From: Thermoanaerobaculia bacterium
GTDB lineage: Bacteria > Acidobacteriota > Thermoanaerobaculia > Multivoradales > UBA5704
Reading direction: 5' to 3'
Assembly (NCBI GenBank): GCA_045807605.1
Contig: JBJMGZ010000658.1
Coordinates: 1 to 47,476 of the forward strand
Length of the DNA: 47,476 bases
The translations under genes and the position numbers were made by a program. Below the pieces are notes generated by a model. The model made no database searches and was not told the DNA's origin. It worked only from the letters and a program-made list of their open reading frames with translations. Shown here one piece after another: positions 10,401 through 47,419 of the stretch (the stretch's first letter is position 1; every line of letters starts with the position of its first letter).

Positions 10401-13400
10401 CGCAGATGGGCCGCCAGCAGCACGCTCTTGAACGGCACGCCCGCGCCGTCCGCGAGCCGGCCGAGCGCCGCGGTCGTCCCGGCCGTCAGAGAGACGGGGG
10501 CCGACCGGATGCGCTGCTCCGGCACCGGCAGCCGTCCCGGCCACCGCGGCAGCTCCTGGAATTCCTGGCCCGCGAGCCGCCCGGACCAGTAGCGGCGGCT
10601 CTCCTCGGACGCGAGCGCCCGCCGCTCCAGCGCCACGAAGTCGCGGAACGCGACCGGGGGAGGAGGCGGCAGGGTCTCGTCGAAGTACAGCGCGAACAGG
10701 TCGGAGAGCAGCGAGGCGAAGCTCCAGCCGTCCACGATCGCGTGGTGCTCGGTGACCCCGAGCTCGCAGGTGTCGTCGGTCAGGAGGTGGGCCCAGAACC
10801 GGAGGAGAGGGGGGCGGCTCCAGTCGAAGCGCCGCGACCGCTCGGCTGCGAAGCGCTCCGCCGTCACCCGCTCCCGCTCCTCCGGCGGGAGCGCGCGGAG
10901 GTCCGCGAACTCCAGGGGGATCCGCGCCTCCCGGTGCACGAGCTGCAGGGGCTCGCCGTACCGCGCCCCGTCGAAGGAGGTCCGCAGCACGGCATGGCGC
11001 GCGGCGAGGCGCTCCAGGGCGCGGGAAAGCCCGGCGGGGTCGAGGGCGCCGCGCAGCGTGAAGCTGCTCACGTTGTGGTAGGGGATCGAGCCCGCGCCGC
11101 TCTCGCCGTGGAAGAGCATGCCGAGCTGGAGCAGCGAGAGCGGATAGGCGTCCTCCAGGCCCTCGGGCAGGCGCTCCCGGTCCGCGGGCGCAACCAGGGC
11201 GAACGGCTCGAGCGCCTCCGTCTCCTCGCCGTCGCGCCGCGCGGCCTGCGCCAGCTCTTCGAGCGTCTGGTAGCGGAAGAGATCCTGGAGCTCGAAGTGC
11301 AGGCCGCGCTCGGCCGCGAGCGAGCGCACCCGGATGCTGAGGATCGAGTCGCCGCCGAGCGCGAAGAAGTTGTCGCCGACCCCGACCTCGTCCAGCCCGA
11401 GGACGCGCGACCAGACCTCGGCGAGCGCCCGTTCCTCGGGTGTCCGCGGGAGGACGAGCTCCCCCGCCAGGGTGGAGCGCTCGCGCTCCGGGGCGGGCAG
11501 GGCGGCGCGGTCGATCTTGCCGTGGGCCGTCAGGGGGAGCGCCGCGAGCGGCACGAAGGCGGCCGGCAGCATGTGCTCGGGCAGCCGCCGGCGCAGGAAC
11601 GCGCGCAGCTCCTCGATCCCCGGCAGCGGCTCCGCTCCGGCCACGAGATAGGCGACCAGGCGCCGCTCCCCGCCCTCTTCGTCGCGATCCTTGCGGGCCA
11701 GCACCACCGCCTGCCGCACCGCCGGGTGCTCGCCCAGGGCGGTCTCGATCTCCCCCAGCTCGATGCGGAAGCCGCGGATCTTGACCTGATGGTCGATCCG
11801 CCCCAGGTACTCCAGGTCGCCGTTCGGCAGGTAGCGCGCGAGGTCGCCCGAGCGGTAGAGGCGCCCCCCTGGCTCGCGCCCGAACGGATCGGGCACGAAG
11901 CGCTGCGCGGTCAGCTCGGGCCGGCCGAGATAGCCCCGGGCCACCCCGGCCCCGCCGACGTACATCTCGCCGGCGACGCCGGTCGGCGCGGGCTCCTGGT
12001 TGCGGTCCAGGACCGCCAGGGAGAGGTCGGGCAGCGCCATGCCGATCATGCTCGCCGCGCTCAGGTCGGACGCGCCGACCGGGCGCCAGGTCACGTGCAC
12101 GGTCGTCTCGGTGATGCCGTACATGTTGACCAGCCGCGGCAGCCGGTCGCCATGGCGCTCGAACCAGGGCGCGAGGCTCTGGAGGTCGAGCGCCTCGCCG
12201 CCGAAGACCACGTAGCGCAGCGCGATCCCCTCCCCCCCCGCCCCGGCATCCGCCTCGATGAGCTGGCGGAAGGCCGACGGCGTCTGGTTGAGCACGGTCA
12301 CCCGCTCGCGCGCCAGCAGCTCGCGGAACGCCGACGGGGAGCGGCTCACGAAGTAGGGGACGACCACGAGCGTGCCGCCGTAGAGGAGGGCTCCCCAGAT
12401 CTCCCAGACCGAGAAGTCGAAGGCATGCGAGTGGAACAGGGTCCAGACGTCGTCCGGGCCGAAGTCGAAGAGCCCCTCGGTCGTGCTGAAGAGCCGCACC
12501 ACGTTGGCGTGGCTCACCCCCACGCCCTTCGGGCGCCCCGTCGATCCCGAGGTGTAGATGATGTAGGCCAGGTTGTCCGGATCGACAAGGACCGGCGCGG
12601 CGGCGTTCTCCTCGTCCAGGGGACCGTCGAGATCGACGACCGGGACATCGCACGCCGGGAGCCTCTCCCGCAGCGAGGACTGGGTGAGCAGCACCCGGAT
12701 CCCCGAGTCCGACAGCAGGTAGCGCAGCCGCTCCTCGGGGTAGGCGGGATCGAGGGGGACGTAGGCGCCACCGGCCTTCAGGATCGCGAGGATGCCCACG
12801 ACCATCGGAATCGAGCGCTCGACGCAGAGGCCCACCCGCGCCTCGGGGCCGGCACCGGCACGCCGCAGCCTCCGAGCCCAGCGTCCGGCGAGCGCGTCGA
12901 GCCCGGCATAGGTCAGCCGCTCGCCCTCGCAGACCACCGCGATCGCGTCCGGCGTGCGCGCCGCCTGCGCCTCGAAGAGCCGGTCGAGCGTGGTTTCGAC
13001 CGGGCGCCGGGCCGCGCCGGTGTTGCGCTCGGCGATCAGGTGGTGGCGCTCCTCCGGGGAGAGGATCGGCAGGCTCCAGATCCGCCGGTCGGGATCGGTG
13101 GCCACGCCGGCGAGAAAGCGTCCGAAGTGATCGAGGAAGCGGTCTGCCGTGGCGGCGTCGAACAGGTCGGTGCTGTACTCGAGCGTCCCTTCGAGGCTCG
13201 CCTCGCCCGCGGCGAGCACCAGGGTGAGATCGAACTTGGAGGAGCTGGTGGAGGTCGCGACCGGCTCGAGCGCCAGGTCCTCCAGGGGGGCCGCGGGCCG
13301 CGGTGCATTCCCGAGAGCCAGCATCACCTGGAAGAGCGGCGTGTGCGAGAGCGTGCGCTCGATCTTCAGCTCGTCGATCAGCTTTTCGAAGGGCAGGTCC

Positions 13401-14484
13401 TGGTTCGCCTGGTCGTCGAGCAGCGTCTCGCCCGTCCGCCGCAGCGCCTCGCGGAAGACCGGGTCCCCGGACAGGTCGGAGCGCATCACGAGCGTGTTGA
13501 CGAAGAACCCGATGAGCTCCTCGGTCTCGCGGTGGCGGCGCCCCGCCACGGGCGTGCCCACGCAGACGTCCTCCTGGCCCGAGCAGCGGCAGAGCAGCGC
13601 CTGGAAGGCGGTCAGCAGCGTGGCGAAGAGCGTGGTCCCCTCGCGGCGCGACAGCTCCTGCAGGCGCTGCGCGAGGTCGGCCGGGAAGAAGAACGGCCGG
13701 CTCGCGCCGCGCGGCGACTGGACCGCGGGCCGCGGCCGGTCCGCGGGCAGCGCGAGCAGGGGCGGAGCGCCCACGAGCCGGCGGTGCCAGTGGTCGACCT
13801 GGGCGGCGAGCACCTCGCCCTGGAGCCAGCGGCGCTGCCAGTCGGCGAAGTCCGCGTACTGGATCGGCAGCTCGGGAAGCGGCGAGGGCTGGCCGCGGTG
13901 GAACGCGCGGTAGAGCACGGCCAGCTCCCGCACCAGCAGGTTGCGCGACCACTCGTCGGAGACGATGTGATGGAGCGTGACCAGGAGCACGTGGCGCTCG
14001 GCCGCCAGGCGCAGCAGCGCCGCCCGGAAGACCGGCCCCTGCGCCAGGTGGAACGGCCGCCGCGCCTCCTCGGCCACCCGGCGATCCAGCTCCTCGGGCA
14101 GTGCGCCCAGGTCGATCACCGGCAGCGGCACGGCCGCGGCCGGGGCCACGGCCTGGACCGGCCCGTCGTCATCTTCCTCGAAAGTCGAGCGCAGCACCTC
14201 GTGGCGCCGCGCCACTTCCATCAGCGCCCGGGCGAGCGCCGCCACGTCGAGCCGGCCGTCGAGCCGCAGGGCCGCGGGCACGTTGTAGGCCGGGCTCGCC
14301 GGCTCCATCTGGTGCAGGAACCAGAGGCGCTGCTGCGAGAACGAGCATGGGAAGCGGTTTCCTGCTCCGCGCAGCGGGCTCGGGGCGATCGGCGGGATGC
14401 CGGAGCCCGAGCGCTCCCGGAGCTTCTGCTGGAGAAGCTTCTGCTTCGCCGGCGAGAGGCGGCCGATGCGGTCGAGGACCTCGC

Positions 14485-14488
<4 letters not shown>
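7424..14488 (-). CDS. NRPS-5, termination protein: C-A(Thr)-T-C(DCL/dual-type)-A(Asn)-T-TE, 2354 aa
   Basis: This is the real part of track ORF 7424..17452, beginning MSEVLDRIGRLSPAKQKLLQQKLRER (ATG 14486-14488, ATGA overlap with the NRPS-4 stop). Motifs found:
- SFSQQRLWFL and HHIVSDEWS
- YTSGSTGRPKG (twice)
- FFALGGDSILS
- YPLSLLQLGMLFH and HHAIVDGWS
- FFALGGHSLLA
- TE motifs GWSLGG and PGDHYS. Confidence 0.95.
7427..8116 (-). other. Type I thioesterase domain (chain release/cyclisation)
   Basis: PLFCIHPVGGSVFCY, nucleophile elbow GWSLGG and C-terminal PGDHYSLL, located at the extreme C-terminus of the last NRPS. Confidence 0.85.
8399..9826 (-). other. A domain of NRPS-5 module 2, predicted Asn (approximate boundaries)
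   Basis: The code is D L T K V G E V G K, read from GFDLTVT / LVKITPA / LVIGGE / NEYGPTETVVG. The published Asn code is DLTKLGEVGK (9 of 10 match). Confidence 0.75.
9869..11161 (-). other. C domain of the DCL/dual-E/C clade (approximate boundaries)
   Basis: The N-terminal motif EDAYPLSLLQLGMLFH differs from the S(F/Y)AQERLWFL motif of the other eight C domains. The active site HHAIVDGWS is intact. It is preceded by the only GGDSI-type carrier in the cluster. Confidence 0.6.
11474..12991 (-). other. A domain of NRPS-5 module 1, predicted Thr (approximate boundaries)
   Basis: The ten-residue code, read by alignment to GrsA positions 235-517, is D F W N V G M V H K. It comes from FDFSVWE / VLNQTPS / VVFGGE / NMYGITETTVH. 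The published Thr code is DFWNIGMVHK (9 of 10 match). Confidence 0.8.
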
Positions 14489-20943
<6,455 letters not shown>

Positions 20944-20950
20944 CGCCCGC

Positions 20951-23380
20951 TCATTCGTAGCGCAACGCGATCGTCGGCTCCACCTTGACCGCGCGCCGCG
21001 CCGGCAGGTACGTCGCGAGCGAGGCGACCGCGATGAAGACGAGGACCACCCCGGCGAAAGTGAACGGATCCCGTGCTGTGACGCCGAAGAGCTGGCTGGA
21101 CAGGAGGCGGGTCAGCACCAGGGCGCTGGCGACGCCCAGAACCAGGCCGCCGCACACCAGGGCCAGGCCGCGGCCCATCACCAGCCCGAGCACGCCGTTG
21201 CGATTCGCCCCCAGCGCCATGCGCAGCCCGATCTCCTGCGTCCTCTGCACCACGGAGTACGCCAGCATGCCGTAGAGGCCGAGCAGGGCGAGAAGCAGGG
21301 CGAGGAACGCGTAGAGCCCGACGATGGCCGCGTTCAGGCGCTGGCTCCGCTCCTGCTCCCGCATGCGCTCCTCGATGGTGCGGATGTCGTAGACCGGGAC
21401 CTGGGAGTCCACCTTGCGGACCGCGTCGCGGACGCTCTTGGTGACGCTCGCCGAATCGATGCTCGCGCGCACGATCAGGTTCGTGTCCGCGGTCGGCCGC
21501 TGCCCGAGCGAGAACAGGATGTGGTGGTTGCCCTCCACGAACCGGCCCTGGAAGCGGACGTTCGGGATGAGCCCCACGACGGTCACCGGCACGTCGGGCT
21601 CGCGGGTGGGCCGGACGAGCCGCTTGCCGATCGGGTCCTGGCCCGGCCACAGGACGTCGGCGAGCGACTTCGTGATCACCGCGACCCGCGGCCCCTCGTA
21701 GATGTCGTCCTGGGTGAACTCGCGGCCCTTGAGCAGCGGCACGCCGAGCACCTTGAGAGCGCCCGGGCTGACGCAGTGCAGGTCCGCCCGGATCGGCGCG
21801 GCCTCCGCCGGCGCGCCCTCGCGCGCGACCTCGGTGAACGTGGTCATGATGCCCGGCATCGCGGGTCCCCAGATCCCGGCCGCCTGCACGCCCGGGGCGC
21901 CGTCGAGGAGCCGGAGCAGCTCCTTCTGGGCCGCCGCCATCGCCGGCCGCTCCTCGTACCTCTCGGACTCGAAGCTCAGCCGCATGCTCAGCAGGCGGGC
22001 GGTCTCGAAGTCCACGCCCGTGGTCTGGAGCAGCCAGAAGCTGCGCAGCAGCAGCCCGGCCACGATGAGCAGGACCACGACGATGGCGACCTGGAAGACG
22101 ATCAGGCTGTTGCGGCCCCGGGACGAGTGGGTCCTGCCCCCGGCGGAGCGGATCTGCTGCAGCGTCCCCTTGGAATCCATGCGCGCGACGCTGAGCGCCG
22201 GCGGCAGGCCGAACAGCAGCCCGGTCAGCACCGTGCCCAGGATGGTGATGGCGAGAATCTGGCCGTCGAGCTCGATCTTGGTGAAGGGCGGCAGGTCGAG
22301 AAGGCCGACCATCAGCTTCGTGCCCCAGACCGCGAGCAGCGCCCCGAGCGCGCCGCCCAGGATGGCCAGGATCAGGCTCTCCGCGAGCACCTGCTGGATC
22401 AGCCGCCACCGGTTCGCTCCGAGAGCGAGCCGCAGGGAGAGGTCGCGCCGCCGCTCGGCCACCCGCACCAGCAGGAGGTTGGCGATGTTGGCGCAGCCGA
22501 TCAGCATGACGAGCCCCGCTCCGGCGAGCAGGATCTTCATCCCGGCCTCCATGTCCTCGAACATGAACTCGCGCAGCGGCAGCACCCGCGCGCCGTAGTC
22601 CTTGTTCGTATCGGGGTACTGGCGCTGCAGGTCGGTGGCGAACGCGTCGGCCTCCTGCTGGGCCTGCTCGACCGTCACCCCCGGCTTCAGGCGCGCCAGG
22701 GAGAACCAGAGACGCTCCTCGCGCGAGGTGAAGATCGGCGGCTCGTTGGGCAGGAACGAGGCTCCCGCCATGTTGGCCGGGATCCAGGCGTCGACCTCCC
22801 ACCGCCCCTGCGGGAAGTCGTAGAGCCCTTCCGGCATCACGCCGACCACCGTGTAGGGCTCGTTGTTGAGGACGATCTTCTGCCCGACGATCCCCGGATT
22901 CTTCTGCCAGAGACGCTGCCACAGGTGATGGCTGAGGATGATGAACGGCGCGCTTCCCGGGGGTCCGTCCTCCTGCGGCGTGAACAGGCGGCCCAGCCGC
23001 GGCTGGACGCCGAGCATCTTGAGATACGACGAGGGGACGTAGTTGACCCCGATCCTCTCGACGGAGTCTCCCTGCATGACGAGACGGTCCTGGTAGCAGA
23101 GGAAGGGCGACACGTCCTCCAGGAGCGCCGTCCTCCTGCGCCAGTCCTCCGACTCGAGCCAGGACAGGTCGGTGTCGGACGAGTTGGGCAGGTAGAACAT
23201 GCTGAGGACGACGAGGCGGTCCGCATCCTTGTAGGCCAGGTCCCGGAAGAGAACCGCCTTGGCGGCGCTGAACACGGATGCGCTGCCGCCGATGCAGAGC
23301 GCCAGGATCAGCAGCACCAGGACGCTGAAGCCCGGACGCAACGCGAGGGATCGTGCCGACTGCCGTACGAGGTTGGTCAT
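20951..23380 (-). CDS. Duplicated FtsX/MacB-type ABC permease without an ATPase domain ('ADOP', acidobacterial duplicated orphan permease family), 809 aa
   Basis: Track ORF 20951..23380. The protein contains two copies of the unit [N-terminal TM + large periplasmic domain + three-TM FtsX module]. The FtsX signatures are GCANIANLLLVRVAERRRDLSLRLALGANRWRL and LYGMLAYSVVQRTQEIGLRMALGANRNGV. The C-terminus LPARRAVKVEPTIALRYE is typical of the family. A strong GGAGGA Shine-Dalgarno sequence at 23385-23390 lies 4 nt before the ATG. Confidence 0.85.
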   Translation of the reverse strand: MTNLVRQSARSLALRPGFSVLVLLILALCIGGSASVFSAAKAVLFRDLAYKDADRLVVLSMFYLPNSSDTDLSWLESEDWRRRTALLEDVSPFLCYQDRLVMQGDSVERIGVNYVPSSYLKMLGVQPRLGRLFTPQEDGPPGSAPFIILSHHLWQRLWQKNPGIVGQKIVLNNEPYTVVGVMPEGLYDFPQGRWEVDAWIPANMAGASFLPNEPPIFTSREERLWFSLARLKPGVTVEQAQQEADAFATDLQRQYPDTNKDYGARVLPLREFMFEDMEAGMKILLAGAGLVMLIGCANIANLLLVRVAERRRDLSLRLALGANRWRLIQQVLAESLILAILGGALGALLAVWGTKLMVGLLDLPPFTKIELDGQILAITILGTVLTGLLFGLPPALSVARMDSKGTLQQIRSAGGRTHSSRGRNSLIVFQVAIVVVLLIVAGLLLRSFWLLQTTGVDFETARLLSMRLSFESERYEERPAMAAAQKELLRLLDGAPGVQAAGIWGPAMPGIMTTFTEVAREGAPAEAAPIRADLHCVSPGALKVLGVPLLKGREFTQDDIYEGPRVAVITKSLADVLWPGQDPIGKRLVRPTREPDVPVTVVGLIPNVRFQGRFVEGNHHILFSLGQRPTADTNLIVRASIDSASVTKSVRDAVRKVDSQVPVYDIRTIEERMREQERSQRLNAAIVGLYAFLALLLALLGLYGMLAYSVVQRTQEIGLRMALGANRNGVLGLVMGRGLALVCGGLVLGVASALVLTRLLSSQLFGVTARDPFTFAGVVLVFIAVASLATYLPARRAVKVEPTIALRYE

Positions 23381-23392
23381 TGGGTCCTCCGT

Positions 23393-26300
23393 CTATTTTC
23401 TCAATCGCTGTTTCAGAAGCGCGAGTTTCTTGTCCGAAAGCCTGGATCGCCGGGCCGCCACCTGGTCCTGGAGAGCCGCGGACCTCTCCTGCGCAACCGC
23501 CCGGCTCCCCTCCTCCTCCGCGTCCTCGTACACCGCCGGATCGGTCAGCCACAAGGTGCCGTCCGCACCCGCGCCAGGCAGGCCGGAGAGCCGCTGCGCA
23601 GGGTCGGCCGCCACGCCGCGGAGCACCTGTTCGAAGTGCGCGAGCAACCGCTCCGCGGTCGTGCGTTCGTAAAGGCCGGCATCATACTCTACCCAGACGA
23701 GAAGGTCTCCGGATTCCACGACAAAGCTCACCGAGAGGTCATAAGGCGCCCGCTTGGCCGAGCGGCCGAGATCGAAGGTCTCCACCGCGACTCCCGGCAG
23801 CCGCAGCGGCGGGATGGAGACGTTCTGGAACACCACCATCACCTGGAAGATCGAGCTCCGCCCCGCCTGCCGGTCGGGACGGCTGCGCTCCACCACCTTC
23901 TCGAACGGCGCATCCTGGTGGGAGTAGGCCTGCAAGGCGGACCTGCGCACCTCGACCAGGAGCTCGCGGAACGTCCAGCCGGGATCGACCGCCGCGCGCA
24001 GGGGCAGCACGTTGGCGAAGAACCCGATCAGGTCCTCGGCCGCCGGATGCGCCCGGTTGGCGTGCATCGTGCCCACCACGACCCGCTCCTGGCCGGTGTA
24101 CCTGTGGATCAGCAGCGCCAGCGCGGCCAGCAGGGTCATGAAGAGCGTGGCGCCCTGCTCCCGCCCCAGCCTCACGAGCGGCTCCAGGACCTCTCCAGGA
24201 ATGGTGCTCCGGACCGCCTCGAGCGCTCCTCCGGCCCGCGAGGCCGGCCGGTCCCGCGGCAGGAGCGCCGGTCCCTCCCCCCCGAGCCGGCCCGCCCAGT
24301 AGGCGAGCTGCTCTTCCAGCAGGTCCCCCTGCAGCCAGCGGCGCTGCCAGGCTCCGAAGTCCGCGTACTGGATGGGCAGGTCCGGCAGGGGCGAGGGCCG
24401 CGCGGCGCAGAAGGCCTCGTAGAGGACCGTCACCTCGCGGATGAGGACACCCAGCGACCAGCCGTCGCAGGCGATGTGATGGATGGTCAGGCAGAAGGCG
24501 TGGTCGTCCTGCGCGAGCTTCACGAGGGCCGCCCGCAGGAGCGGCCCGCGGGCGAGGTCGAACGGCGCGGACTGGAGAGCCTGGATGGCCTGCCGCGCCG
24601 TCTCCTGCCGGTCCGCGGCGGGCAGGCCGGAGAGGTCGGCCACGGCCAGGAGCCGCCGGGGAGGCGCGTCGATCACCTGGAGAGGGCGGCCGTCGGCCAC
24701 GATCCGCGTCCGCAGCACCTCGTGCCGCCGGCAGATCTCCACGAGAGTCGCGTCGAGCGCTTCCAAGGAGAGCCGGCCGCGCAGGCGGAAGGCATAGCCC
24801 AGGTTGAAGGCATTGCTGCCGGGCTCCAGCTGGTCGTAGAGCCAGAGCCTCTCCTGGGCGTACGAGACCGGCAGCGGCCCGCCGCGCGGCACCCGCTCCA
24901 GAGGGGGCAGCTCCCGGGCTCCGGAGCGCGTCTCGACGGCGGCGGCGAGCCGGGCGGGCGTGGGATGCTCGAAGAGCAGGCCGGGAGGCAGCTCGACGCC
25001 GAGCGCCTCCCGCAGGCGGGCCGTCACCTGGCCGGCCAGGAGAGACTGTCCGCCCAGGGCGAAGAAGTCATCGTCGGGGCCGATCGCGCCGGTCTCCAGG
25101 AGGTCCGCCCAGATCCCGAGCACGATCTCCTCGGTGGGCGTGCGCCCGGCCGGAGCGCTCGCCGGCTCCTCCGCCCGGACCTCGGGCAGCGCGCGGCGAT
25201 CCACCTTGTTGTTCGGCGTGAGCGGCAGCGCGTCCAGAAGCGCGAACGCGGCCGGCCGCATGTAGTCCGGCAGGCGGCCGGCGAGGAGCTTCTGGATCTC
25301 GGAGAGATCGATCGGCTCCCGCGGCACCAGGTAGGCCACCAGCCGCTTCTCCCCGGACTTCGCGGCCGCGGCCACCACGACGGCGTCCTTCACCCCCGGA
25401 TGCTCCAGGAGCACCGACTCGATCTCGCCGAGCTCGATGCGGAAGCCGCGGATCTTGACTTGATGGTCCGACCGTCCCAGAAAATCGAGCTGCCCGTCTT
25501 CGGTGACGCGGGCCAGGTCGCCGGTGCGGTAGAGGCGCGCCCCGGCTCCGGACGGGCTCGGGACGAACCGCTCGGCCGTGAGATCGGGCCGGCCGAGGTA
25601 GCCGCGGGCGAGCCCCGCGCCGCCGATGTAGAGGTCTCCGGGCGTCTCCGCCGGAACCGGCCGCAGGTTCTCGTCGAGCACGAGGAGGTCGGTCGCCGCG
25701 ATCGGGCCTCCGATCGGGACCGGCCCGTCCCCGGGCTCGACCCGCGCGACGGCCGACCAGATCGTGGTCTCGGTCGGGCCGTAGAGGTTCCAGAGCTCGG
25801 CCCCGCTCTCCAGGAGCTGGCGCGCGAGCTCGCGGGGCAGCGCCTCGCCGCCGCAGAGCATGCGCAGCCGGGGGCTCCCCTTCCACCCGGATTGCAGGAG
25901 GAGCTTCCAGGTGACGGGCGTGGCCTGCAGCGCGGTCGCGCCGCTCGCCTCCAGGAGCCGGGCCAGGCGCGCGCCGTCCATCGCCGTCTCCCGGGACGCC
26001 ACGACCACGCGGCCGCCCGCGACGAGCGGCAGGAAGATCTCCAGCCCGGCGATGTCGAAGGAGAGCGTGGTGACCGCCACCAGCACATCGGTCTCGCGGA
26101 ACCCGGGCCGCTCCCGCATCGAGAGCAGGAAGTTGGCGAGCGCGCCGTGCGTGACCTGCACCCCCTTGGGCCGGCCCGTGGAGCCCGAGGTGTAGATCAC
26201 GTACGCAAGATTTTCCGGCAGGGCGCGGACCTCGGGGCACGAATCGTCCGTTCCGTCCAGCCCCTCCTCCAGCGGATCGGTCAGGACCACCTTCAGGCCC

Positions 26301-26590
26301 GAGTCGCGGACCATGAGCTCGAGCCGGTCCGCGGGGAAGCCCGGATCGAGAGGCACGTAGGCGCCGCCGGCCTTGTGGATCCCCAGCATGGCCACGACCA
26401 TCTCGATGCCGCGCCGGAGGCGCAGCCCCACGAGGACCTCGGGTCCGACGCCCAGCCCGATGAGCCGGTGCGCCAGGCGGTTGGCGCGCCGGTCGAGCTC
26501 GCCGTAGGTGAGCTCCCGGCCCTCGAACACGAGGGCGGCCCGGTCCGGAGCGCGCCGCGCGCGCTCCTCGAAGAGCTCGCGCACCGTCAT
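23393..26590 (-). CDS. NRPS-3: A(Gly)-T-C plus a basic C-terminal helix, 1065 aa (permuted module)
   Basis: This is the real part of track ORF 23393..27265, beginning MTVRELFEERARRAPDRAALVFEGRELTYGELD, that is, directly at A-domain core A1 (ATG 26588-26590, ATGA overlap with the NRPS-2 stop). Motifs found:
- YTSGSTGRPKG
- FFALGGQSLL
- VSYAQERLWLY
- HHIACDGWS
- tail ...AARRSRLSDKKLALLKQRLRK followed by the stop. Confidence 0.9.
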   Translation of the reverse strand: MTVRELFEERARRAPDRAALVFEGRELTYGELDRRANRLAHRLIGLGVGPEVLVGLRLRRGIEMVVAMLGIHKAGGAYVPLDPGFPADRLELMVRDSGLKVVLTDPLEEGLDGTDDSCPEVRALPENLAYVIYTSGSTGRPKGVQVTHGALANFLLSMRERPGFRETDVLVAVTTLSFDIAGLEIFLPLVAGGRVVVASRETAMDGARLARLLEASGATALQATPVTWKLLLQSGWKGSPRLRMLCGGEALPRELARQLLESGAELWNLYGPTETTIWSAVARVEPGDGPVPIGGPIAATDLLVLDENLRPVPAETPGDLYIGGAGLARGYLGRPDLTAERFVPSPSGAGARLYRTGDLARVTEDGQLDFLGRSDHQVKIRGFRIELGEIESVLLEHPGVKDAVVVAAAAKSGEKRLVAYLVPREPIDLSEIQKLLAGRLPDYMRPAAFALLDALPLTPNNKVDRRALPEVRAEEPASAPAGRTPTEEIVLGIWADLLETGAIGPDDDFFALGGQSLLAGQVTARLREALGVELPPGLLFEHPTPARLAAAVETRSGARELPPLERVPRGGPLPVSYAQERLWLYDQLEPGSNAFNLGYAFRLRGRLSLEALDATLVEICRRHEVLRTRIVADGRPLQVIDAPPRRLLAVADLSGLPAADRQETARQAIQALQSAPFDLARGPLLRAALVKLAQDDHAFCLTIHHIACDGWSLGVLIREVTVLYEAFCAARPSPLPDLPIQYADFGAWQRRWLQGDLLEEQLAYWAGRLGGEGPALLPRDRPASRAGGALEAVRSTIPGEVLEPLVRLGREQGATLFMTLLAALALLIHRYTGQERVVVGTMHANRAHPAAEDLIGFFANVLPLRAAVDPGWTFRELLVEVRRSALQAYSHQDAPFEKVVERSRPDRQAGRSSIFQVMVVFQNVSIPPLRLPGVAVETFDLGRSAKRAPYDLSVSFVVESGDLLVWVEYDAGLYERTTAERLLAHFEQVLRGVAADPAQRLSGLPGAGADGTLWLTDPAVYEDAEEEGSRAVAQERSAALQDQVAARRSRLSDKKLALLKQRLRK
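25181..26590 (-). other. A domain of NRPS-3, predicted Gly (approximate boundaries)
   Basis: The code is D I L Q L G L I W K, read from SFDIAGLE / TALQATPV / MLCGGE / NLYGPTETTIW. It is identical to the published Gly code DILQLGLIWK. Confidence 0.85.
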
Positions 26591-29500
26591 GGGGCCATGG
26601 CTCCGGACGCGGGCTCGAGCAGCGAGTCGACCTCGTCCTCGCTGAGGCTCTCGATCTGCTCGATCATGCGGTCCTCGATCACTCCCGACAGCTCCGCGAC
26701 CGTCGGGGCCTCGAACAGCGCGCGCAGCGCCAGCTCCACGCCGAAGGTCTCGCGCAGCCGCCAGGTCGCCTGCGTGGCCAGCAGCGAGTGCCCTCCGAGC
26801 TCGAAGAAGTTGTCGAACACCCCCACCCGCTCCACGCCGACGACCTGGGTGAAGATCTCCGCGACGGCGGCCTCGATCTCGGTGCGGGGAGCGACGTAGG
26901 GCCGGTCCTGGCCCCCCTCCCCTCCCACCTCCGGCAGGGCGCGCCGGTCCACCTTGCCGCTGGTGTTGAGCGGCAGGCGCTCCAGCTCCACCCAGGCCGA
27001 CGGCACCGCGTAGTCGGGGAGCCGGCTCTGCAGGAACTGGCGAAGGTCCTGGACCGTGGCCTCGCCGGGGGTCCGGATCACCACGTAGGCCACCAGCCGC
27101 TGCGCGCCCGAGGGCTCGGGCCGGGCCAGGACCACGACCCCCGCGATCGCGGGGTGCTCGCTGAGCACGGCCTCGATCTCGCCCAGCTCCAGGCGGAAGC
27201 CGCGGATCTTCACCTGGTGGTCGATCCGCCCGAGGAACTCCAGGTTGCCGTCGGCGCGCAGGCATGCCAGGTCGCCGGTGCGGTACAGGCGGGCGCCGGG
27301 CAGGACCGAGCAGGGGTCGGGCACGAACACGGCCGCGGTCTTCGCGGGATCGAACAGGTAGCCGCGGCCCACGCCGCCGCCGCCCACGCAGAGCTCGCCC
27401 GTCACCTCCAGGGGCACGGGGTCGAGCCAGGGGCTCATCACGTAGAGCTGCGTGTTGAGGACCGGCCTGCCGATCGGGATCGAGCGCGCCTGCGCGGCTT
27501 CCTCAATGGTGACCCGGTGGTGGCTGATGTCGTCCGAGCACTCGGTGGGGCCGTAGGCGTTGAGCAGCGCGGCCCCCGGATAGGCCCGGTGCCACTCGCG
27601 GCAGAGCTCCGGCGGCAGCGCCTCGCCGGTCGGAATCAGCCAGCGCAGCGCCGCGAGCCCGGGTCCGGCGCCCGCGCCGCGGCGGCGGATCTCCTCCAGC
27701 ATGAGCCGCATCAGCGACGGCACGGTCTCGAGCACCGTGACCCCGTCCGCCTCCACCCGGTCGAAGAGCACGGCCGGATCGTGCGCGACCGCGTCGCGGT
27801 AGATCTCGACCCGCCCGCCGGTGGCCAGCGGCGCCAGGAACTGCCAGACCGAGATGTCGAAGCACTGCGACGCGGTCTGCGCCACCACGTCGGCGCCGGT
27901 CAGCGCGAGGTCCTCGATCTTGGCGAACAGGTGGTTGATCATGCCTCCGTGCACGACCATGGCGCCCTTGGGCACCCCGGTCGAGCCCGAGGTGAAGATC
28001 ACGTAGGCGAGGTTCGCGGAGCCGCTGCGGGCCGGCGGCGCCTCCGCCAGCTCGCCGTCCGCCAGGGTCTCCAGGTCGAGCAGCCCGGCCTCCGTCCCCG
28101 CTTCCTCGGCGAGAGGCCGGAGGGCCTGCGAGGCCAGCACCCATCGGCTGCGGCTCTGCTCGAGCACCTGGCGGATGCGGCCGGCGGGGTGATGGGGGTC
28201 GAGCGGCAGGTACGCCCCGCCGGCCTTGAACACCCCGAGCATCGCGACCAGGAAGTCCAGCCCGCGCTCGGCCAGGAGGGCGACCAGGCCCTCGGCATCT
28301 ACGCCGTGCTGGATCAGGCTCGCGGCGAGCCGGTTGGCCCGCCGGTCGAGCTGGGCGTAGGTCAGGCTCTCCCCGTCGCAGGCCGCGGCCACGCGGTCCG
28401 GGTGCTGCGCCGCGAGCCCCTCGAAGAGCTGCTGGAACGCCTGCCCCCGCGGGAAGCTCCCGGCACGGTCGTTCCATTCGCCGAGGAGCTGCGCCCGCGA
28501 AGTCTCCGAGAGGACCGGCAGCGAGGCCACGTCGCGCCCAGGGGACTCCGCCATGCAGCCGAGCAGCGCCTGGAAGTGCTCCAGGAAGCGGGCGATGAAC
28601 GGCGCGTCGAACAGGCTCGTGCTGAAGTGGAGCGCGCCTTCGAGCCCCGTGCCGTCCTCGGTCATCTCCAGGAACAGCTCGAACCGGGTCGTGCCGGTCT
28701 CGACGTCCATGCGGCTGAGGCTCAGGCCGGGCAGCTCGATGCGCTCCAGCGGCGCGTTCTGGAGCGCGAACATGACCTGGAAGAGCGCCGAGCGCTCCAG
28801 GTCCCGATCGGGGTTGATCTCGGCGACCAGCCGCTCGAACGGCACGTCCTGATGGCCGAAGGCGTCGAGCGCCACCCGCCGCACCCGCCGCAGCAGCTCC
28901 TCCACGTCCGGCGTGCCCGAGAGGTCCGCGCGCACGACCAGCGTATTGACGAAGAACCCGATCAGGCGCTCGAGCTCGGTCCGGCCGCGGCCGGCCACCG
29001 GCACGCCGACCGGAATGTCGGAGGCGCCGCTGTAGCGCTGGAGCAGCGCGGCGAAGCCTCCGAGGAGCGTCATGAAGAGCGTCGTCCCGCTCTGCCGGCT
29101 GAGCACCCGGAGCCGGGCGGCCAGGGTGTCCGGCACGCGGAACCACCTCGTCCCGCCCTGCCACGGATCGCCGTCGTTCTGCGCGCGCCGCCGCGGCAGG
29201 TCGAGGGCCGCGGGCGCATCCGCGAGCCGCTCCTTCCAGAAAGCGAGCTGCCGTTCAAGAACCTCGCCCTGGAGCGCGTCGCGCTGCCAGCACGCGAAAT
29301 CCGTGTACTGCACGGGCAGCTCCGGCAGGAGCGGGGGCCGGCCCGCCGCGATCGCCGTGTACAGGGCGGAGACCTCGGACAGGAGCACGCCCATGGACCA
29401 GGCGTCGGACACGATGTGGTGCAGGTTCAGGAGCAGCACGTGCTCTCGCGGAGAGCGCCGCACCAGCAGGGCGCGAATCAGCGGCCCCCTTTCGAGGCTG

Positions 29501-32500
29501 AAGGGGAGGCGCCCGTCGAGCACCGCGAGGCGGACCGTCTCCCGCTCGCGCGCGGCCTCCGGCAGGGCGCTCAGGTCGATCAGGCGGAGCTCGATGGGCA
29601 GGCGCTCGTGCACGATCTGCCGGGGCTGCCCCTCGACAGAAGTGAAGGTGGTGCGGAGCGTGGCATGCCGGCGCACGATCTCGTCGAGGATCGCCGCGAA
29701 GACGGCGGGCTCGGCGATCCCTTCCAGCAGCGTGACGCTGGGCAGGTTGTAGGCCGGGCTGCCGGGCTCGAACTGGTCGAGGAACCAGAGCCGCTCCTGG
29801 GCGAACGAGAGGGGGAGCGCCTCGCCGGCGGCAGCCGTTCGGATCGGGATGGCGGCGAGCTCGGAGGTCGTCCCCAGCGCCGCGTCGACGCGCGCGGCGA
29901 GCCCCGCCAGGGTGGGCGCCTCGAACAGCTCGCGCAGGGGGAGGTCGATGCCCATCGACGCGCGCAGGCGGGAGAGGACCTGGATGGCGAGGAGCGAGTG
30001 GCCGCCGAGGTCGAAGAAGCTGTCCTCGACGCCGACCTGCTCGCGCTTCAGGAGCTCCTGCCAGATCTCCGCGAGCTGCCGCTCCGTGCGCGTGCGGGGC
30101 GGCGTGCCGGCAGTCCCCTCCTGCCCCGCCTCGGGCGCGGGCAGCGCCTTGTAGTCGATCTTGCCGTTGGGCGAGAGCGGCAGCCGGTCGAGGAAGACGA
30201 AGACCGAGGGCACCATGTAGTCCGGCAGGAGCTCGCCGAGCCAGGCGCGCAGCCGCGCCGGCAGGCCCTCGCGCTCCTCGCCGGCAGCGACCACGTATCC
30301 CACGAGGCGCGCCGAGGCCGCGGAGCCGCCGTCGCGGCGCACCGCCACCACGGCCTGGCCCACCTCCTCGTGCTTGCGCAGCACGGCCTCGATCTCGCCG
30401 ATCTCGATGCGGAAGCCCCGCACCTTGACCTGATGGTCCAGCCGGCCCAGGAAGTCGACCCGGCCGTCGGGCAGGTAGCGGGCGAAGTCGCCGGTGCGGT
30501 AGAACCGCGAGCCCGCATCGCCCGACAGGGCGTCGGGCACGAAGGACGCGGCCGTGCGCGCCGGATCGGCGAGATACCCGCGCCCCACGCAGACGCCGCC
30601 CACGCAGAGCTCCCCGGGCACGCCGATGGGCGCCGGCTGGAGCCGCGGATCGACGATGTAGAGCCGGGCGTTGCGCAGCGGCCGGCCGACCGGCGTGATC
30701 CCGCTCCCCGCCTCCCGACCCTCGGAGATGGCGAGGGTGCTCACGTCGTCCGAGCACTCCGAGGGGCCGTACAGGTTGAGCAGCGGCACGTGCGGATAGA
30801 CCGAGAGCCAGCGCCGGCAGAGGTCGGAGGGCACGGCCTCGCCGGTCGGCATCACCCACCGCAGCCGGGCCAGGGGAGGGCGCGCAGCCCCGAGCCGGTC
30901 GGCCTCGTCGAGGAGCGCCTGAAGCAGCGAGGGCACGATCTCGAGGACCGTGATGCCGCCCGCCTCGATCTCCTGCAGCAGGGTCCAGGGGTCGTGGGCG
31001 ACCTTGTCCGGCACGATGCGCACCGTGCCGCCGGCCGCGAGCACCGCCAGGAACTGCCAGACCGAGATGTCGAAGCACTGCGACGCGGTCTGCGCCACCA
31101 CGTCGCGGTCGTCGAGCGGCAGGTCTTCCACCTTGGACCGGACGTTGTTCACCAGTCCTTTCACCTCGACCATGACCCCCTTGGGCGTGCCGGTCGAGCC
31201 CGAGGTGAAGATCACGTAGGCGAGGTTCCCGGGCTCCCCGTAGGGAGGAGCGCCTGCGTCCGGCTCCCCGGCGAGCACCTCCTCCAGCACCTCGAACCGG
31301 GGCGGCGCCGCCAGGATCTCGACCGCGGCCCGCATGCGAGCCGCATGGTCCTGGGAAGCCAGGGCGAAGGCGGCGCCGGAGCTCTCCAGGATCTGCCCGA
31401 TCCGCCGCTCGGGATGGGCAGGGTCGAGCGGCAGGTACGCGGCTCCGCATCGCAAAATGGAAAGAATGGCGGTCAGGAACGGGATGCCGCGATCCGCCAG
31501 AACGGGCACGATCGCGTCCCTGCCCACGCCGCGGGCCGCCAGGACCCGGGCCATCCGGTCCACCCGCTCGGCGAGCTCGCCGTAGGAGACCCGCTCCTCG
31601 GCGCAGGAGGACGCGCAGGCGGCCGGCCGCAGGGCGGCCTGCTCCTCGAACATCTCGGAGAGCGTGCCGAGCCGCGAGCTCGACGGCCGGGCCGTGTCGT
31701 TCCATTCGAGCAGCAGGTGCTGGCGCTCGGCGGCTGCGAGGAGCGGCGCCTGGAGAAGCCCGCGGTCCGGGTCCTCCACCAGGTTCAGGAGCAGCGCCTC
31801 GAAGTGGGCGAGCAGGCGCCCCACCGTCGTCCGGTCGAAGAGGTCGACGTCGTAGTCCAGGTCTCCGGCGAGCCCGTCGCCGCGCTCCTCCAGGTAGAAC
31901 AGGAGGTCGTAGTTCACGACGTCGCGCTCGATCTCCCTGGCCGCGATGCGCAGGTCGCCCAGCTCGAGCGCGGCCGAGGGGGTGTTCTGGAGGATGAGCA
32001 TCACCTGGAAGAGCGGCGTCAGGCTCAGGTGCCGCTCCGGGTTGAGCTCCTCGACCAGCTTCTCGAACGGCATGTCCTGGTGGGCGTAGACGCCGAGCGT
32101 CACGTCGCGGACGCGCGCGAGGGCCTGGCGGAAGCTCATCCCCTCGTGCAGGCGGGCGCGCAGCACGAGGGTGTTGATGAAGAACCCGATCAGGTTCTCG
32201 ACCTCGCGGCGATGGCGGTTGGCGATCACCGTGCCGGTGGTCAGGTCGGGCTGGCCGGAGTAGCGCCAGAGCAGCGTGTACCAGGCGGTGAGGAGCGACA
32301 TGAAGAGCGTGCTCCCCGTCTTCTGCCCGAGCGCCCGCAGCCGCGCCGTGACCGAATCGGAGAGCGCGAAGCCCGCCCGCGCGCCCCGATACTGCTGCAC
32401 CGGCGGCCGCGGCCGGTCGAGCGGCAGGTCGAGGGAGTCGGGGGCGCCGGCGAGCTGCCCCTTCCAGAACTCCAGCTCGCTTGCCAGGACCTCCCCCTGC

Positions 32501-35500
32501 AGCCAGCCCCTCTGCCAGGCCGCGTAATCCGGGAACTGGATCGGCAGCTCCGGCAGGCCGGGCCGGCGGCCGGCGGCGAACGCCTCGTAGGCCGCGCTCA
32601 TCTCCCGGGTCAGGACCCAGAGCGACCACCCGTCGGAGACGATGTGATGCAGGGTGAGCACGGCCAAGTGCTCCGTGGGGGAGAGGCGCAGGAGCGTCGC
32701 CCGCAGCAGCGGCCCGGTCCGCAGATCGAAGGGCTTGCGGGCCTCCTCGTCCACGAGCCGCTCCTGCTCGGCCCGGCGCCGCGACGGGGGCAGGGCCGAG
32801 ACGTCCACCACCGGGAACGGACACGGCGCGAACGGATCGATGACCTGCAGCGGCTCGCCGTCGACGTCCAGGAAGCGGGAGCGCAGGGTCTCGTGGCGGC
32901 GCACGATCTCGTTGAGCCCCGCTTCGAGCGCCGCGACGTCGAGCCGGCCCTCCAGGCGCACGGCCGTCGCGAGGTTGAAAACGGCACTGCCGGGCTCCCA
33001 GCGGTCGAAGAACCAGACCCGCTGCTGGGAGAACGACAGGGGGATCCTCCCCTCCCGCGGCACCGGGCGCAGCGGCGGGATCTGGCGGTCGGCTCCGAGC
33101 TCGCGGCTGCGCTCGACCTCCGCGGCGAGGAGGAGGACCGTCGGCAGCTCGAAGAGCCGGCGCAGCGGCAGGTCCACGCCGCAGACCTCGCGCAGGCGCG
33201 ACGCCACGCGCGCCGTGGACAGGGAGTGCCCGCCGAGGTCGAAGAAGCTGTCCTCGACGCCGATCCGCGAGATCCCCAGGACGTCGGACCAGATCCCGGC
33301 GATCAGCTGCTCCATGGGCGTGCGCGGCGGCGGCGAGGCGGCCGCTCCCGCGCCGGCCAGGTCGGGCGCCGGCAGCGCCGTCCGGTCGATCTTGCCGTGC
33401 GCGGTCAGCGGGATCGCGTCGAGGGTCACGAACGCCGCCGGCACCATGTGCTCGGGCAGGCGCTTGCGCAGATGGGCGCGCAGCTCCTCCGCCGACGGCG
33501 GCTCCGCCTGCGCGGGCACCAGGTAGGCGACCAGCCGCGGCTCGCCGGCCGGGCCGGGAAGGGCCAGGACGAGGGGCTGGCGGACCCCGGGATGCTCCGC
33601 CAGCGCGGCCTCGATCTCGCCCAGCTCGATGCGGAAGCCGCGGATCTTGACCTGGTGGTCGATGCGGCCCTGGTAGTCGAGATCGCCGCCCGGCAGCCGG
33701 CGGGCCAGGTCGCCCGAGCGGTAGAGACGCGCCCCCGGCACGCCTCCGAACGGATCGGGCAGGAAGCGCTGGGCCGTCAGGTCGGGCTGCCCGAGATAGC
33801 CGCGGGCGGCGCCGGCGCCGCCCACCCAGATCTCCCCGGGAACGCCGCGCGGCACGGGCTGGAAGCTGCGGTCCAGCAGGTAGAGGCTCAAGTCCGGCAG
33901 GGGCGCGCCGATGGCGCTCGCCGCACGGCCGCTCAGGACGTCCTCCGAGAGCAACCGGCGCCAGGTCACGTGCACGGTGGTCTCGGTGATGCCATACATG
34001 TTGACCAGCCGCGGCCGCTCGTCGCCGTAGCGCTCCATCCAGGGCCGCAGGCTGCGCGGGTCCAGCGCCTCGCCGCCGAAGATCACCCAGCGCAGCGCCA
34101 GCTCCCCTCCGGCCTCGCGGTCGGCCTCCATGAGCTGGAGGAAGGCCGAGGGGGTCTGGTTGAGCACCGTGACCCGCTCGCGGACCAGCAGCTCGTGGAA
34201 CGCCGACGGCGAGCGGCTCACCCAGTAGGGGACCACCACGAGCGTGCCGCCGTAGGCGAGCGCTCCCCAGATCTCCCAGACCGAGAAGTCGAACGCGTGG
34301 GAGTGGAACAGCGTCCAGACGTCCCCGGGGCCGAAGTCGAACAGGCCCTCGGTCGACCGCAGGAGACGGACGACGTTGGCGTGGGTCACGCCCACGCCCT
34401 TGGGCTTGCCCGTGGAGCCCGAGGTGTAGATGACGTAGGCCAGACTGGCGGGTCCCGCGGCTTCCGGCGCCGGACCGGGCTCGTCGCCGAAGGAGCCGTC
34501 GAGGTCGAGCACCGCGAGCACCGCGGCGGCGCAGCCGGGCAGCCGGTCGCGCAGGGCGCTCTGGGTGAGCAGGACCCGGATGCCGGAGTCCTCGAGCAGG
34601 AAGCGCAGCCGGCTCTCGGGATAGGCGGGGTCGAGAGGCACGTACGCGCCGCCCGCCTCCAGGATGCCGAGGATCCCCACGACCATGTCCACGGAGCGCT
34701 CCACGCAGAGGCCGACCCGCACCTCGGGTCCGACGCCCAGGCCGCAGAGCCGCCGGGCCAGCCGCCCCGCCCGGTTGCGCAGCTCGCCGTAGGCGACGCT
34801 CTCGCCGCCGCAGACCACGGCCGCCGCATCCGGCCGCTGCTCCGCCTGCCTGGCGAACAGCTCGTGCAGGCAGGCGTCGACCGGCAGCTCCGCGGGCGGG
34901 GCTTCGCAGAGTAGCTGGCGCCGCTCCTCCGGATCGAGCAGCGGCAGCTCCGACAGCCGGCTGCGCAGAGCGGCGGAACCGACCCCCTGGAGCAGCGACT
35001 GGAGATGGCCGGCCATGCGCGCGGCGGTGGCCGGATCGAAGAGCTCGGAGTCGTACTCCAGCCAGCCCGCCAGGAGCCCGCCGAGCTCGTGGAGGCTCAG
35101 ATTCAGATCGAACTTCGAGGTCCCGATGTCCAGCCGCTCGCGGCGCAGGGAAAGGCCGGGCAGGTCGACGGAGTCCGGGATCGCGTTCTGGAAGGCGAGC
35201 GTCACCTGGACGAGCGGGTTGTAGCTCGGGTTGCGCTCGACCTGGAGCGCCTGGACCAGGCGGTCGAACGGCAGGTCCTGGTGGGCCAGCGCCTCCAGCG
35301 TCACCCTGCGGACCGCGGACAGCAGCTCCGCCAGCGCCGGATCCCCCGGCAGGTCCACCCGCAGCGCCAGCGTGTTGACGAAGAAGCCGACGAGCCCCTC
35401 GATCTCCGTGCGGTTGCGGCCCGCGACCGGCATGCCCACGACCACGTCGTCCGCGCCCGAGTAGCAGCGCAGGAGGACCTGCCAGGCCGCCAGGAGCAGC

Positions 35501-46472: not shown

Positions 46473-47419
46473 CGCTCCCTCCGCTGCCCGCGCAGGCGCG
46501 CGAACGCCGCCTTGCTGCGCTGCCCCCGGTCGGACGAGATCGGCGCCGCGGCGGCGCGGCCCTGGAACAGGTCCCTGCGCACGGCGTACAGGTTGTACAT
46601 GACCGATCCGCGGTAGAGCGGGTCCTGCTCGGCCCCGACGTGGAAGCCCTTCCCCTCCAGGAGCTCGGTGACGAGCGCCAGGCGGCCTTCGAAGTCGTGC
46701 ACCTCGATGGCGATCTGGCGCACCTTCGGCCAGTCCTCGGGCGCGAGCCCGCGCAGCACGTCGACCTCGCTCTTCTGCACGTCGATCTTGAGCAGGTCGA
46801 TCGTCTCCACCCCCTCCTGGCGGATGATCTCGGAGAGCGGCACGAGCGGGCATTCGAGGGTCATGGAGGTGAACCGCGCGTCGAGGAAGTCGTCGGACTT
46901 CCGCAGCACCGCGTCCACCTCGCCGTGGCCGGCCTTGAGCTGGTTTTCGAGCACGGTGCGCAGCACGTCCTTCTCCTCCTCCTCGTTGCCGTAGAAGGAC
47001 GACATGCCCGAGCTGTAGGGATAGAAGGTCAGGCTGGCCGTGCCGCGGCGGTCGGAGACGCCGCAGTTGAAGAGCCGGCAGGTCCCGTTGCCGCCGTGGC
47101 GCGCCGCGTTGTAGCGCAGGATCTCGAAGAGCGGCGGCGCGGGCTCGAACGTGTAGGTCACCAGGTCGCGGAACGTCTGGTGGAGAAAGACCGTGAACAG
47201 CCCGATGTTGCCGCCGACGTCGAACACGCAGGCGCCGTCCCAGAGCGTGATGCCGTTGGACAGGTAGACCCGGTGGTCGAAGATGTCCTCGTAGATGTGC
47301 TCCGTCTCCTTGGGGCTCTGGCAGGCGATCTCCAGGCCGTTGGGGAGCGTGCAGAAGCGCTGCACGGACGGCGGCGGCGCGGCCTTGGGATCGATGGGCG
47401 CGATCATCTCGGTCATCAT
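46469..47419 (-). CDS. FkbM-family SAM-dependent methyltransferase, 316 aa
   Basis: Track ORF 46469..47419. It has the SAM-binding motif [16 protein letters not shown] and a typical FkbM N-terminal block [37 protein letters not shown] Shine-Dalgarno sequence lies about 5 nt upstream of the ATG. The frame stays open upstream to the window edge (19 codons), so an N-terminal extension cannot be excluded. Confidence 0.75.

Follow-up and report, generated by a model that had tools for sequence, protein, structure and literature searches.

The DNA analyzed here is a stretch of 47,476 nt (the window, by which we mean the whole stretch) from contig JBJMGZ010000658.1 of a Thermoanaerobaculia bacterium of the phylum Acidobacteriota. 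Its G+C content is 72.7%, and its minus strand carries every gene relevant here. The gene under study encodes an acidobacterial duplicated permease (ADOP) and lies inside a cluster of polyketide synthase (PKS) and nonribosomal peptide synthetase (NRPS) genes, between NRPS-3 and NRPS-4 (table 1; the synthetases are abbreviated N1 to N5). A direct reading of the minus strand places the NRPS-3 stop codon (TAG) at 23395–23393 and the ADOP start codon (ATG) at 23380, then the ADOP stop codon (TGA) at 20953–20951 and the NRPS-4 ATG at 20943. With the junctions re-read in this way, the gene coordinates, the spacings, and the Shine–Dalgarno (SD) sequence given in an earlier note on this DNA all proved right. 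That note had also held that the permease gene must be co-transcribed with the synthetase, and the two short spacers are compatible with such a reading of the sequence. Neither terminator-like nor promoter-like (sigma-70-like) sites were found at the two ADOP junctions, and the packing is similar elsewhere in the cluster, where 4-nt overlaps join N2 to N3, N4 to N5, and N5 to the gene of a major facilitator superfamily (MFS) transporter, the remaining genes being tightly abutted. The G+C content at third codon positions (GC3) is 0.95 in the ADOP gene, for 0.92–0.96 in the neighboring genes. A protein identical to the window ADOP is on record at NCBI (MFL6199518.1), from a Thermoanaerobaculia bacterium metagenome-assembled genome (MAG), with the bare annotation “ABC transporter permease,” and the sequencing runs SRR20363669 and SRR20363604 contain the gene.

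Table 1. Positions of the ADOP gene, of its junctions and predicted coupling helices, and of the surrounding biosynthetic and transporter genes in the window (C, condensation; A, adenylation; T, thiolation; TE, thioesterase; TM, transmembrane helix; NBD, nucleotide-binding domain; AF2, AlphaFold2).
Feature	Position	Strand	Basis
ADOP-family duplicated Type VII ABC permease, 809 aa	20951..23380	-	TIGR03434, Pfam, AF2, Foldseek
Spacer of 12 nt, ACGGAGGACCCA, with GGAGGA Shine–Dalgarno for the ADOP	23381..23392	-	Direct reading
Spacer of 7 nt, ADOP stop to NRPS-4 ATG	20944..20950	-	Direct reading
Coupling helix 1, aa 311–319, between TM2 and TM3, predicted NBD-contact element	22424..22450	-	AF2 model
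Coupling helix 2 (predicted), aa 714–722, between TM6 and TM7	21215..21241	-	AF2 model
PKS module KS-AT-KR-DH-ACP, head of the assembly line	39743..45205	-	Pfam; start codon approximate
NRPS-1 (N1), C-A-T, 1120 aa	36380..39742	-	Pfam
NRPS-2 (N2), (C-A-T)x3, 3260 aa, acidic C-terminal tail	26587..36369	-	Pfam
NRPS-3 (N3), stand-alone A-T-C, 1065 aa, without N-terminal C domain, basic tail	23393..26590	-	Pfam
NRPS-3 C-terminal tail LSDKKLALLKQRLRK, basic	23396..23440	-	Sequence comparison
NRPS-4 (N4), C-A-T-C-A-T, 2152 aa, immediately 3' of the ADOP	14485..20943	-	Pfam
NRPS-5 (N5), C-A-T-C-A-T-TE, 2354 aa, terminal, bears the thioesterase	7424..14488	-	Pfam
MFS transporter, EntS-like, MFS_1 101.4 bits, MFS_3 53.3 bits	6078..7427	-	Pfam

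The assignment of the permease to the ADOP family is clear. It matches TIGR03434, the model of this family, with 797.6 bits for a cutoff of 622.3, residues 5–809 being aligned with profile positions 5–803 of 803, and because this alignment runs from end to end, the open reading frame (ORF) can be taken as full length with a correctly placed start. Pfam recognizes two MacB_PCD and two FtsX domains in the protein and no ABC_tran domain. By contrast with the family model, the equivalog models of related permeases are all widely failed, be it MacB (NF007826, 107 bits for a cutoff of 966), LolCE (TIGR02212, 27.1 bits for 362.45), DarB (NF038008, 17.8 bits for 700), or DevC, so that the view of the gene as an ADOP and not as an ordinary MacB or LolE protein, already put forward in the earlier note, is upheld. 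DarB/DarD, LolCDE, BceAB, and HrtBA nevertheless belong to the same superfamily, and DarB is likewise a long duplicated permease encoded in a peptide-antibiotic cluster. As the earlier note had also proposed, the ADOP has neither a fused nor a nearby ATPase at this locus: the Walker A/LSGGQ pair is absent from all frames of the window, and tblastn returned no match to an HlyD adaptor or to a MacB/LolD-type ATPase within it.

A homologue search over 5.8 billion proteins gave more than 7000 ADOP-like hits, and their ranking contains a sharp break. About 35 cluster representatives are 45–99% identical to the query (744–1763 bits), when all other hits have at most 41% identity and at most 598 bits, and in a neighbor-joining tree these approximately 35 proteins form one clade with the query. 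We examined the gene surroundings of ten independent members sampled across this clade, its deepest branch among them (the window, P0004, P0006, P0007, P0010, P0017/P0018, P0027, P0035, P0022/P0034, and P0021; P0013, P0016, P0024, and P0030, for example, fall outside the sample). The relatives whose DNA was available have at most 72% amino-acid identity, a distance at which synonymous sites are saturated. In every one of them, down to 45% identity, the ADOP gene lies between NRPS genes and directly 5' of an N4-like C-A-T... subunit, and a head homologous to that of NRPS-4 (MTEPSGRIAALSPKRRALLAQRLR) comes after the ADOP at each clade locus. The subunit directly 5' of the ADOP has the A-T-C organization in 9 of the 10 loci, in the variant form A-MT-T-C at L096; in the deepest member, L012, the ADOP is preceded by an ordinary A-T subunit whose tail is acidic, so that the pairing between A-T-C subunit and ADOP is not universal. 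The GGAGG(A) motif is kept in the spacer before the ADOP at L004, L006, L008, L009, L010, and L011, and two loci carry an in-place tandem duplication of the ADOP (L010, 7508–12421; L095, 7047–12066). No ATPase, adaptor, or outer-membrane factor was found within 10 kb on either side of the ADOP at any clade locus. The named members all come from Thermoanaerobaculia or Acidobacteriota MAGs, and all the examples are from MAGs or metagenomes; a scan of genome contigs with the single ADOP protein returned one distant relative (27% identity) and no cultured or GTDB-representative host. A peculiarity of L012 is that the NRPS gene 3' of its ADOP (12439–14000) shifts from frame 1 to frame 2 near 13470 and is thereby split. 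For its first ~340 residues, the gene caller overlooked the NRPS in favor of two small antisense ORFs; the frameshift marks either a cluster in decay or a mistake in the assembly.

To set this clade against the rest of the family, we used as a background 80 listed metagenome ADOP loci and one locus from genomes (32–38% identity, 886 kb in total). Among the matches listed, the metagenome scan yielded generic ADOPs only and no clade members. An NRPS or PKS homologue (E < 1e-8) was found at none of these 81 generic loci, which are a sample from soil and sediment metagenomes with many short contigs. The contrast in NRPS/PKS context between 10/10 clade members and 0/81 generic loci corresponds to a Fisher's p of 1.6e-13, a value to be read in the knowledge that, phylogenetically, the clade counts as one ancestral event. 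The recurrence in all ten relatives, set against the generic loci, indicates that the position of the ADOP is no chance adjacency, and the association with biosynthesis is a property of this clade and not of ADOPs in general, since no generic locus displays it. The neighborhood survey suggested in the earlier note thus comes out in two ways, with an enrichment of biosynthetic genes in one clade and none among the generic loci, which contradicts a family-wide link.

Transporter genes are commonplace in biosynthetic clusters. An operational test of whether a transporter is dedicated to its cluster is that the same biosynthetic genes adjoin it across diverged relatives, and this is what we observe in all ten clade members. 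The honest reading of the genomic sequences is a single ancestral capture of the ADOP, retained through divergence down to 45% identity. As this arrangement is conserved clade-wide over such a range, the link between the ADOP and the cluster product drawn in the earlier note is much stronger than before; export of the product, or self-protection against it, can still be worded only as what this link would suggest. It could be objected that one ADOP paralogue among hundreds merely landed between NRPS genes and has no function related to the product, and the huge size of the ADOP paralogous families (more than 7000 hits), along with their frequent tandem duplications, would make such an accident conceivable. 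Yet the gene is intact and keeps its place in all ten relatives, to 45% identity, despite changes of NRPS architecture nearby, and the clade is monophyletic, with a native composition and a conserved SD. We hence hold a mere hitch-hiker to be extremely improbable, as the conserved synteny goes most of the way toward refuting this idea. A recent horizontal insertion of the ADOP gene is ruled out by its native GC3 together with the conserved synteny.

The generic loci are also informative with regard to the energy source of ADOPs. An ABC ATPase is present in 16 of the 81 listed generic loci according to motifs and in 18 according to tblastn, and in at least seven of them it lies 18–174 nt upstream of the ADOP. 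These ATPases score best against the DarD, MacB-NBD, LolD, and YbbA models, DarD ranking first, and the permeases behind them are bona fide ADOPs, with 910–1046 bits against TIGR03434. Hence, the absence of an adjacent ATPase, by which the earlier note characterized ADOPs, holds at this locus and at the clade loci but not family-wide. In 9 of the 81 listed generic loci, a gene for an HlyD-family adaptor (confirmed by Pfam in L014 and L036, and by tblastn in the other loci) is followed by an ATPase gene and then by one to seven tandem ADOPs, with seven in L067, at least five in L026, five in L014, and four in L029. Because bona fide members sit behind such HlyD–ATPase pairs, ADOPs are almost certainly dependent on NBDs. 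From their gene order, the arrays indicate that several ADOPs can share one ATPase/adaptor pair and that “orphan” is a misnomer for these permeases. The upstream same-strand neighbor of 124 generic ADOP starts is most often another ADOP (60 cases), followed by a PadR regulator (13) and an ATPase (10). PadR genes stand directly 5' of generic ADOPs at L016, L019, L021, L022, L027, L034, and others, which suggests that the expression of many ADOPs is inducible and responsive to stress or drugs. In comparison with these generic ADOPs, the window ADOP shares the acidobacterial provenance and the combination of two FtsX and two MacB_PCD domains in one chain devoid of an NBD, but it belongs to a divergent sub-clade (32–40% identity), as also reflected by its lower score against TIGR03434; and whereas generic ADOPs lie in tandem arrays, behind PadR or behind HlyD–ATPase, only the clade of the window was found inside biosynthetic operons.

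AlphaFold2, run with an alignment of 60 sequences, gave a confident model of the permease (pLDDT 85.2, pTM 0.76). The predicted fold consists of 4+4 TM helices and two periplasmic MacB-like domains (approximately aa 56–268 and 463–668), with no NBD. A short amphipathic helix is predicted at the N-terminus, ahead of TM1, and the two halves would be connected by a disordered cytoplasmic linker (aa 404–419). The 4-TM unit of MacB, in which a large periplasmic domain separates TM1 from TM2 and a major coupling helix separates TM2 from TM3, would occur twice in one chain. When the model was compared with the PDB by Foldseek, YbbP of the Escherichia coli YbbAP system matched it best over the full length (E 2.6e-20), followed by MacB, the pneumococcal Spr0694-95 permease, LolC/E, HrtB, and BceB. 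YbbP is a pseudo-dimeric fused permease of 10 TM helices that binds two separately encoded ATPase copies through its two coupling helices (PMC12646458). YbbP thus resembles the ADOP as a single-chain pseudo-dimer that has a pair of periplasmic domains and a pair of coupling helices, but its 10 TM helices include two linker helices and YbbA is adjacent to it, whereas in the ADOP the halves are fused directly, with 8 TM helices in total and no ATPase next to them.

Because YbbP is the best full-length structural match and presents membrane-extracted substrates to TesA (PMC12646458), one might imagine that the ADOP extracts a precursor and passes it to a periplasmic protein in the manner of YbbAP–TesA or FtsEX–EnvC. 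Potential recipients could then be the products of two BamB/PQQ-type beta-propeller genes that come after the MFS gene on the same strand (3725–5947 and about 2277–3700). However, nothing beyond the fold similarity speaks for these propellers as periplasmic, clade-conserved, or ADOP-interacting proteins, and the ADOP departs from YbbP both in topology (8 TM helices instead of 10) and in sequence, at 13–16% identity. A presenter of this kind is accordingly very improbable in our estimation.

The first of the predicted coupling helices, 'VRVAERRRDLSLRLALGAN', aligns with 'VSVTERTREIGIRMAVGAR' of MacB, and the motif of the second, QRTQEIGLRMALGAN, is nearly invariant over 60 ADOPs, as are the segments around both helices. 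Between the NRPS-embedded clade and generic ADOPs, the coupling-helix segments are the most conserved part of the protein (identity of 0.53 and, for helix 2, 0.66), and the periplasmic domains are the most divergent (0.27–0.32). This distribution of identity indicates that the clade has retained the engine interface and altered its presumed substrate-facing domains. It also bears on the idea that the ADOP works without any ATPase, as a scaffold anchoring the NRPS megacomplex at the membrane, for instance through the A-T-C subunit, and thereby coupling synthesis to the MFS transporter. A cluster without any ATPase, the recurrence 5' of the ADOP, in 9 of the 10 clade loci, of an A-T-C gene whose basic tail is conserved, and a mid-operon ADOP with a strong SD of its own are all in line with such a scaffold. 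On the other hand, the best-conserved elements are precisely the coupling helices, whose sole known role is NBD contact, the ADOP of L012 stands behind an A-T subunit with an acidic tail, and the FtsX/MacB superfamily offers no precedent, on account of which we deem the scaffold improbable.

From a functional perspective, the substrates of Type VII ABC transporters are not carried by them across the inner membrane but are expelled or extracted, on its periplasmic side, through ATP-driven mechanotransmission (PMC5985334). MacAB homologues encoded in operons for nonribosomal peptide toxins act from the periplasm in this manner, as PvdRT-OpmQ does for pyoverdine, and since they skip the inner-membrane step, they need another pump for it (PMC5985334). 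By analogy, the MFS transporter of the window cluster is a candidate for such an inner-membrane pump. Its start codon and the NRPS-5 stop codon overlap as ATGA (7424–7427, by direct reading); the transporter, translationally coupled to NRPS-5 in this way, is the candidate for a first exporter, across the inner membrane. This gene was absent from the earlier note. With it, the ADOP is not the sole candidate for export, and a second, periplasm-side step is the more likely place for the ADOP. The MacAB–TolC-type pumps of nonribosomal peptides, among which PvdRT-OpmQ and the MacAB homologues associated with Pseudomonas lipopeptides, share with the ADOP a Type VII fold with Porter/Sabre domains and a coupling helix; like it, they are encoded with the synthetase and have a separate transporter for the inner-membrane step. 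They differ in that MacB and PvdT function as homodimers, have an NBD at the N-terminus, and lie beside the gene of their adaptor, whereas the ADOP consists of fused halves and has no NBD, adaptor, or outer-membrane factor in its cluster; in addition, their genes lie at the edge of the cluster, and the ADOP gene lies between synthetase genes.

On this basis, we propose that the ADOP of this clade is a product-dedicated, MacB-like (Type VII) ABC permease that borrows its ATPase and clears the product after the MFS step, a reading to which we give a probability of roughly 60%. According to this proposal, the peptide would be synthesized in the cytoplasm, and the co-encoded MFS transporter would carry the acyl-peptide over the inner membrane. 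Two copies of a MacB/LolD/DarD-type ATPase encoded in trans, of the same kind as those heading the HlyD–ATPase–(ADOP)n arrays of other Acidobacteriota, would energize the ADOP, whose mechanotransmission would pull the amphiphilic product from the periplasm or from the outer leaflet. The product would then be handed outward, probably via an adaptor of the HlyD type, which would be shared, and a channel in the outer membrane, so that secretion would be completed and/or the envelope of the producer protected, and the divergent periplasmic domains would confer specificity for the product. Within this scheme, we infer the ATPase in trans as well as the direction and the step of transport, and we do so purely by reasoning as regards the source of energy, because neither the window nor the 10 kb on either side of the clade ADOPs contains an ATPase. 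Three points weigh against the proposal: ATPase, adaptor, and outer-membrane factor are all absent from the window and from the surveyed surroundings of the clade loci; the conserved synteny amounts to one ancestral event, which proves retention and no particular activity; and the MFS transporter alone could be sufficient for export.

This last point leads to the view that the ADOP serves immunity only, in the fashion of BceAB, where it would free a target in the membrane or clear product that comes back in, and that the MFS transporter does all the export. With this view agree the presence of BceB and HrtB among the structural relatives of the ADOP, the dedicated MFS exporter in the cluster, and the report that MacB/FtsX domains in biosynthetic gene clusters are statistically linked to antibacterial activity and high molecular weight of the products (PMC7849407). 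Such domains have also been recorded, at the Pfam level, in acidobacterial clusters (PMC7849407). Nonetheless, the architecture of the ADOP is nearer to MacB, YbbP, and LolCE than to BceB, which combines 10 TM helices with one extracellular domain, against 8 TM helices and two periplasmic domains of the Porter/Sabre type in the ADOP, and the HlyD adaptors alongside generic ADOPs imply extrusion through the envelope. An immunity-only role therefore strikes us as unlikely, and it overlaps functionally with the export that we favor.

Beyond the clade, the tandem arrays raise the more tentative idea, possible but short of an even chance in our judgment, that ADOPs are interchangeable, substrate-specific permease “cartridges” mounted on one shared HlyD-adaptor/ATPase engine per genome, in which case the NRPS-embedded clade would be a cartridge captured by a lipopeptide pathway and co-evolved with it. 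Such a shared engine would account both for the large paralogous families and for the apparent lack of ATPases. If true, the window gene and its relatives would be the first ADOPs with an assignable substrate and would open a way to de-orphan the family. In the Acidobacteriota, a dominant phylum of soils, few paralogous families are as large as the ADOPs, to which no substrate has been assigned since they were named. In this regard, a clade locked to one biosynthetic operon gives the family its first concrete candidate substrate, and the arrays behind a single adaptor–ATPase pair suggest how “orphan” permeases get their power. In the literature on ADOP/TIGR03434, we found discussion only in a taxonomic paper and in a paper on a Psychroflexus genome, whose authors speculate about efflux (PMC3914696), and our search of the literature on Thermoanaerobaculia and NRPSs returned nothing about this cluster. 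Three features thus seem to be new, namely a discrete ADOP clade locked into one position of an NRPS operon, the two-transporter layout of ADOP and MFS in the window cluster, and the evidence from arrays that ADOPs share adaptor/ATPase engines. The finding as a whole, although mechanistically unsurprising, is a useful and testable handle on a large uncharacterized family. For genome mining, the clade could flag PKS–NRPS clusters of uncultured Thermoanaerobaculia that are likely to make envelope-active peptides; a practical limit on testing is that a cluster of roughly 40 kb at 73% GC, available from MAGs and metagenomes only, requires heterologous expression.

As for the assembly line itself, it probably makes an acylated peptide (a lipopeptide) some nine residues long. 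The PKS ORF has no gene with an identical product on record. The subunit 5' of the ADOP is unusual in that it begins with an A domain and finishes with a genuine C domain (HHIACDGWS, and no epimerase motifs), which bears out the earlier note's claim of a non-colinear junction at NRPS-3; the subunit resembles a permuted module. An ordinary A-T-E/C junction, with an epimerase as the last domain of NRPS-3, was considered and rejected: HHIACDGWS is present, the EGHGRE and FNYLG motifs are absent, and the domain is 45% identical to the LCL-like C domains of the cluster. After this domain, the end of NRPS-3 (..QDQVAARRSRLSDKKLALLKQRLRK) mimics the N-terminal “LSPxxxxLLxxRLR” heads of NRPS-1, -2, -4, and -5, and it is basic, unlike the acidic tails that terminate NRPS-1, -2, and -4. 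The tail is kept in L001, L004, L006, L008, L009, L010, L011, L095, and L096. One possible role for it is docking, whereby the acidic tail of NRPS-2 would reach the NRPS-3 C domain.

Several further observations concern the C domains and the flanks of the cluster. Variant catalytic motifs occur in N4-C1 (HHIAADLWS), in N5-C1 (HHIVSDEWS), and in N1-C1 and N2-C3 (HHIVSDAWS), and N5-C2, whose identity to the other C domains of the cluster is only 29%, probably represents a different subtype for this reason. On the 5' side of the PKS, the minus strand carries an ORF with an amino-acid-kinase domain and an FkbM-type methyltransferase gene (45189–47419), which may serve in the supply or tailoring of an unusual starter or building block. 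At the other end, an ORF 3' of the propeller genes (1189–2280, minus strand) has a weak partial match to AMP-binding domains, and the combination of propellers and AMP-binding-like ORF (1189–5947) is reminiscent of ACSF4-like A-domain/propeller proteins. In the first ~1190 nt of the window, a plus-strand ORF (59–970) has no Pfam hit and a phase that disagrees with the GC3 signal, the periodicity of which points to a further minus-strand gene running off the window start.

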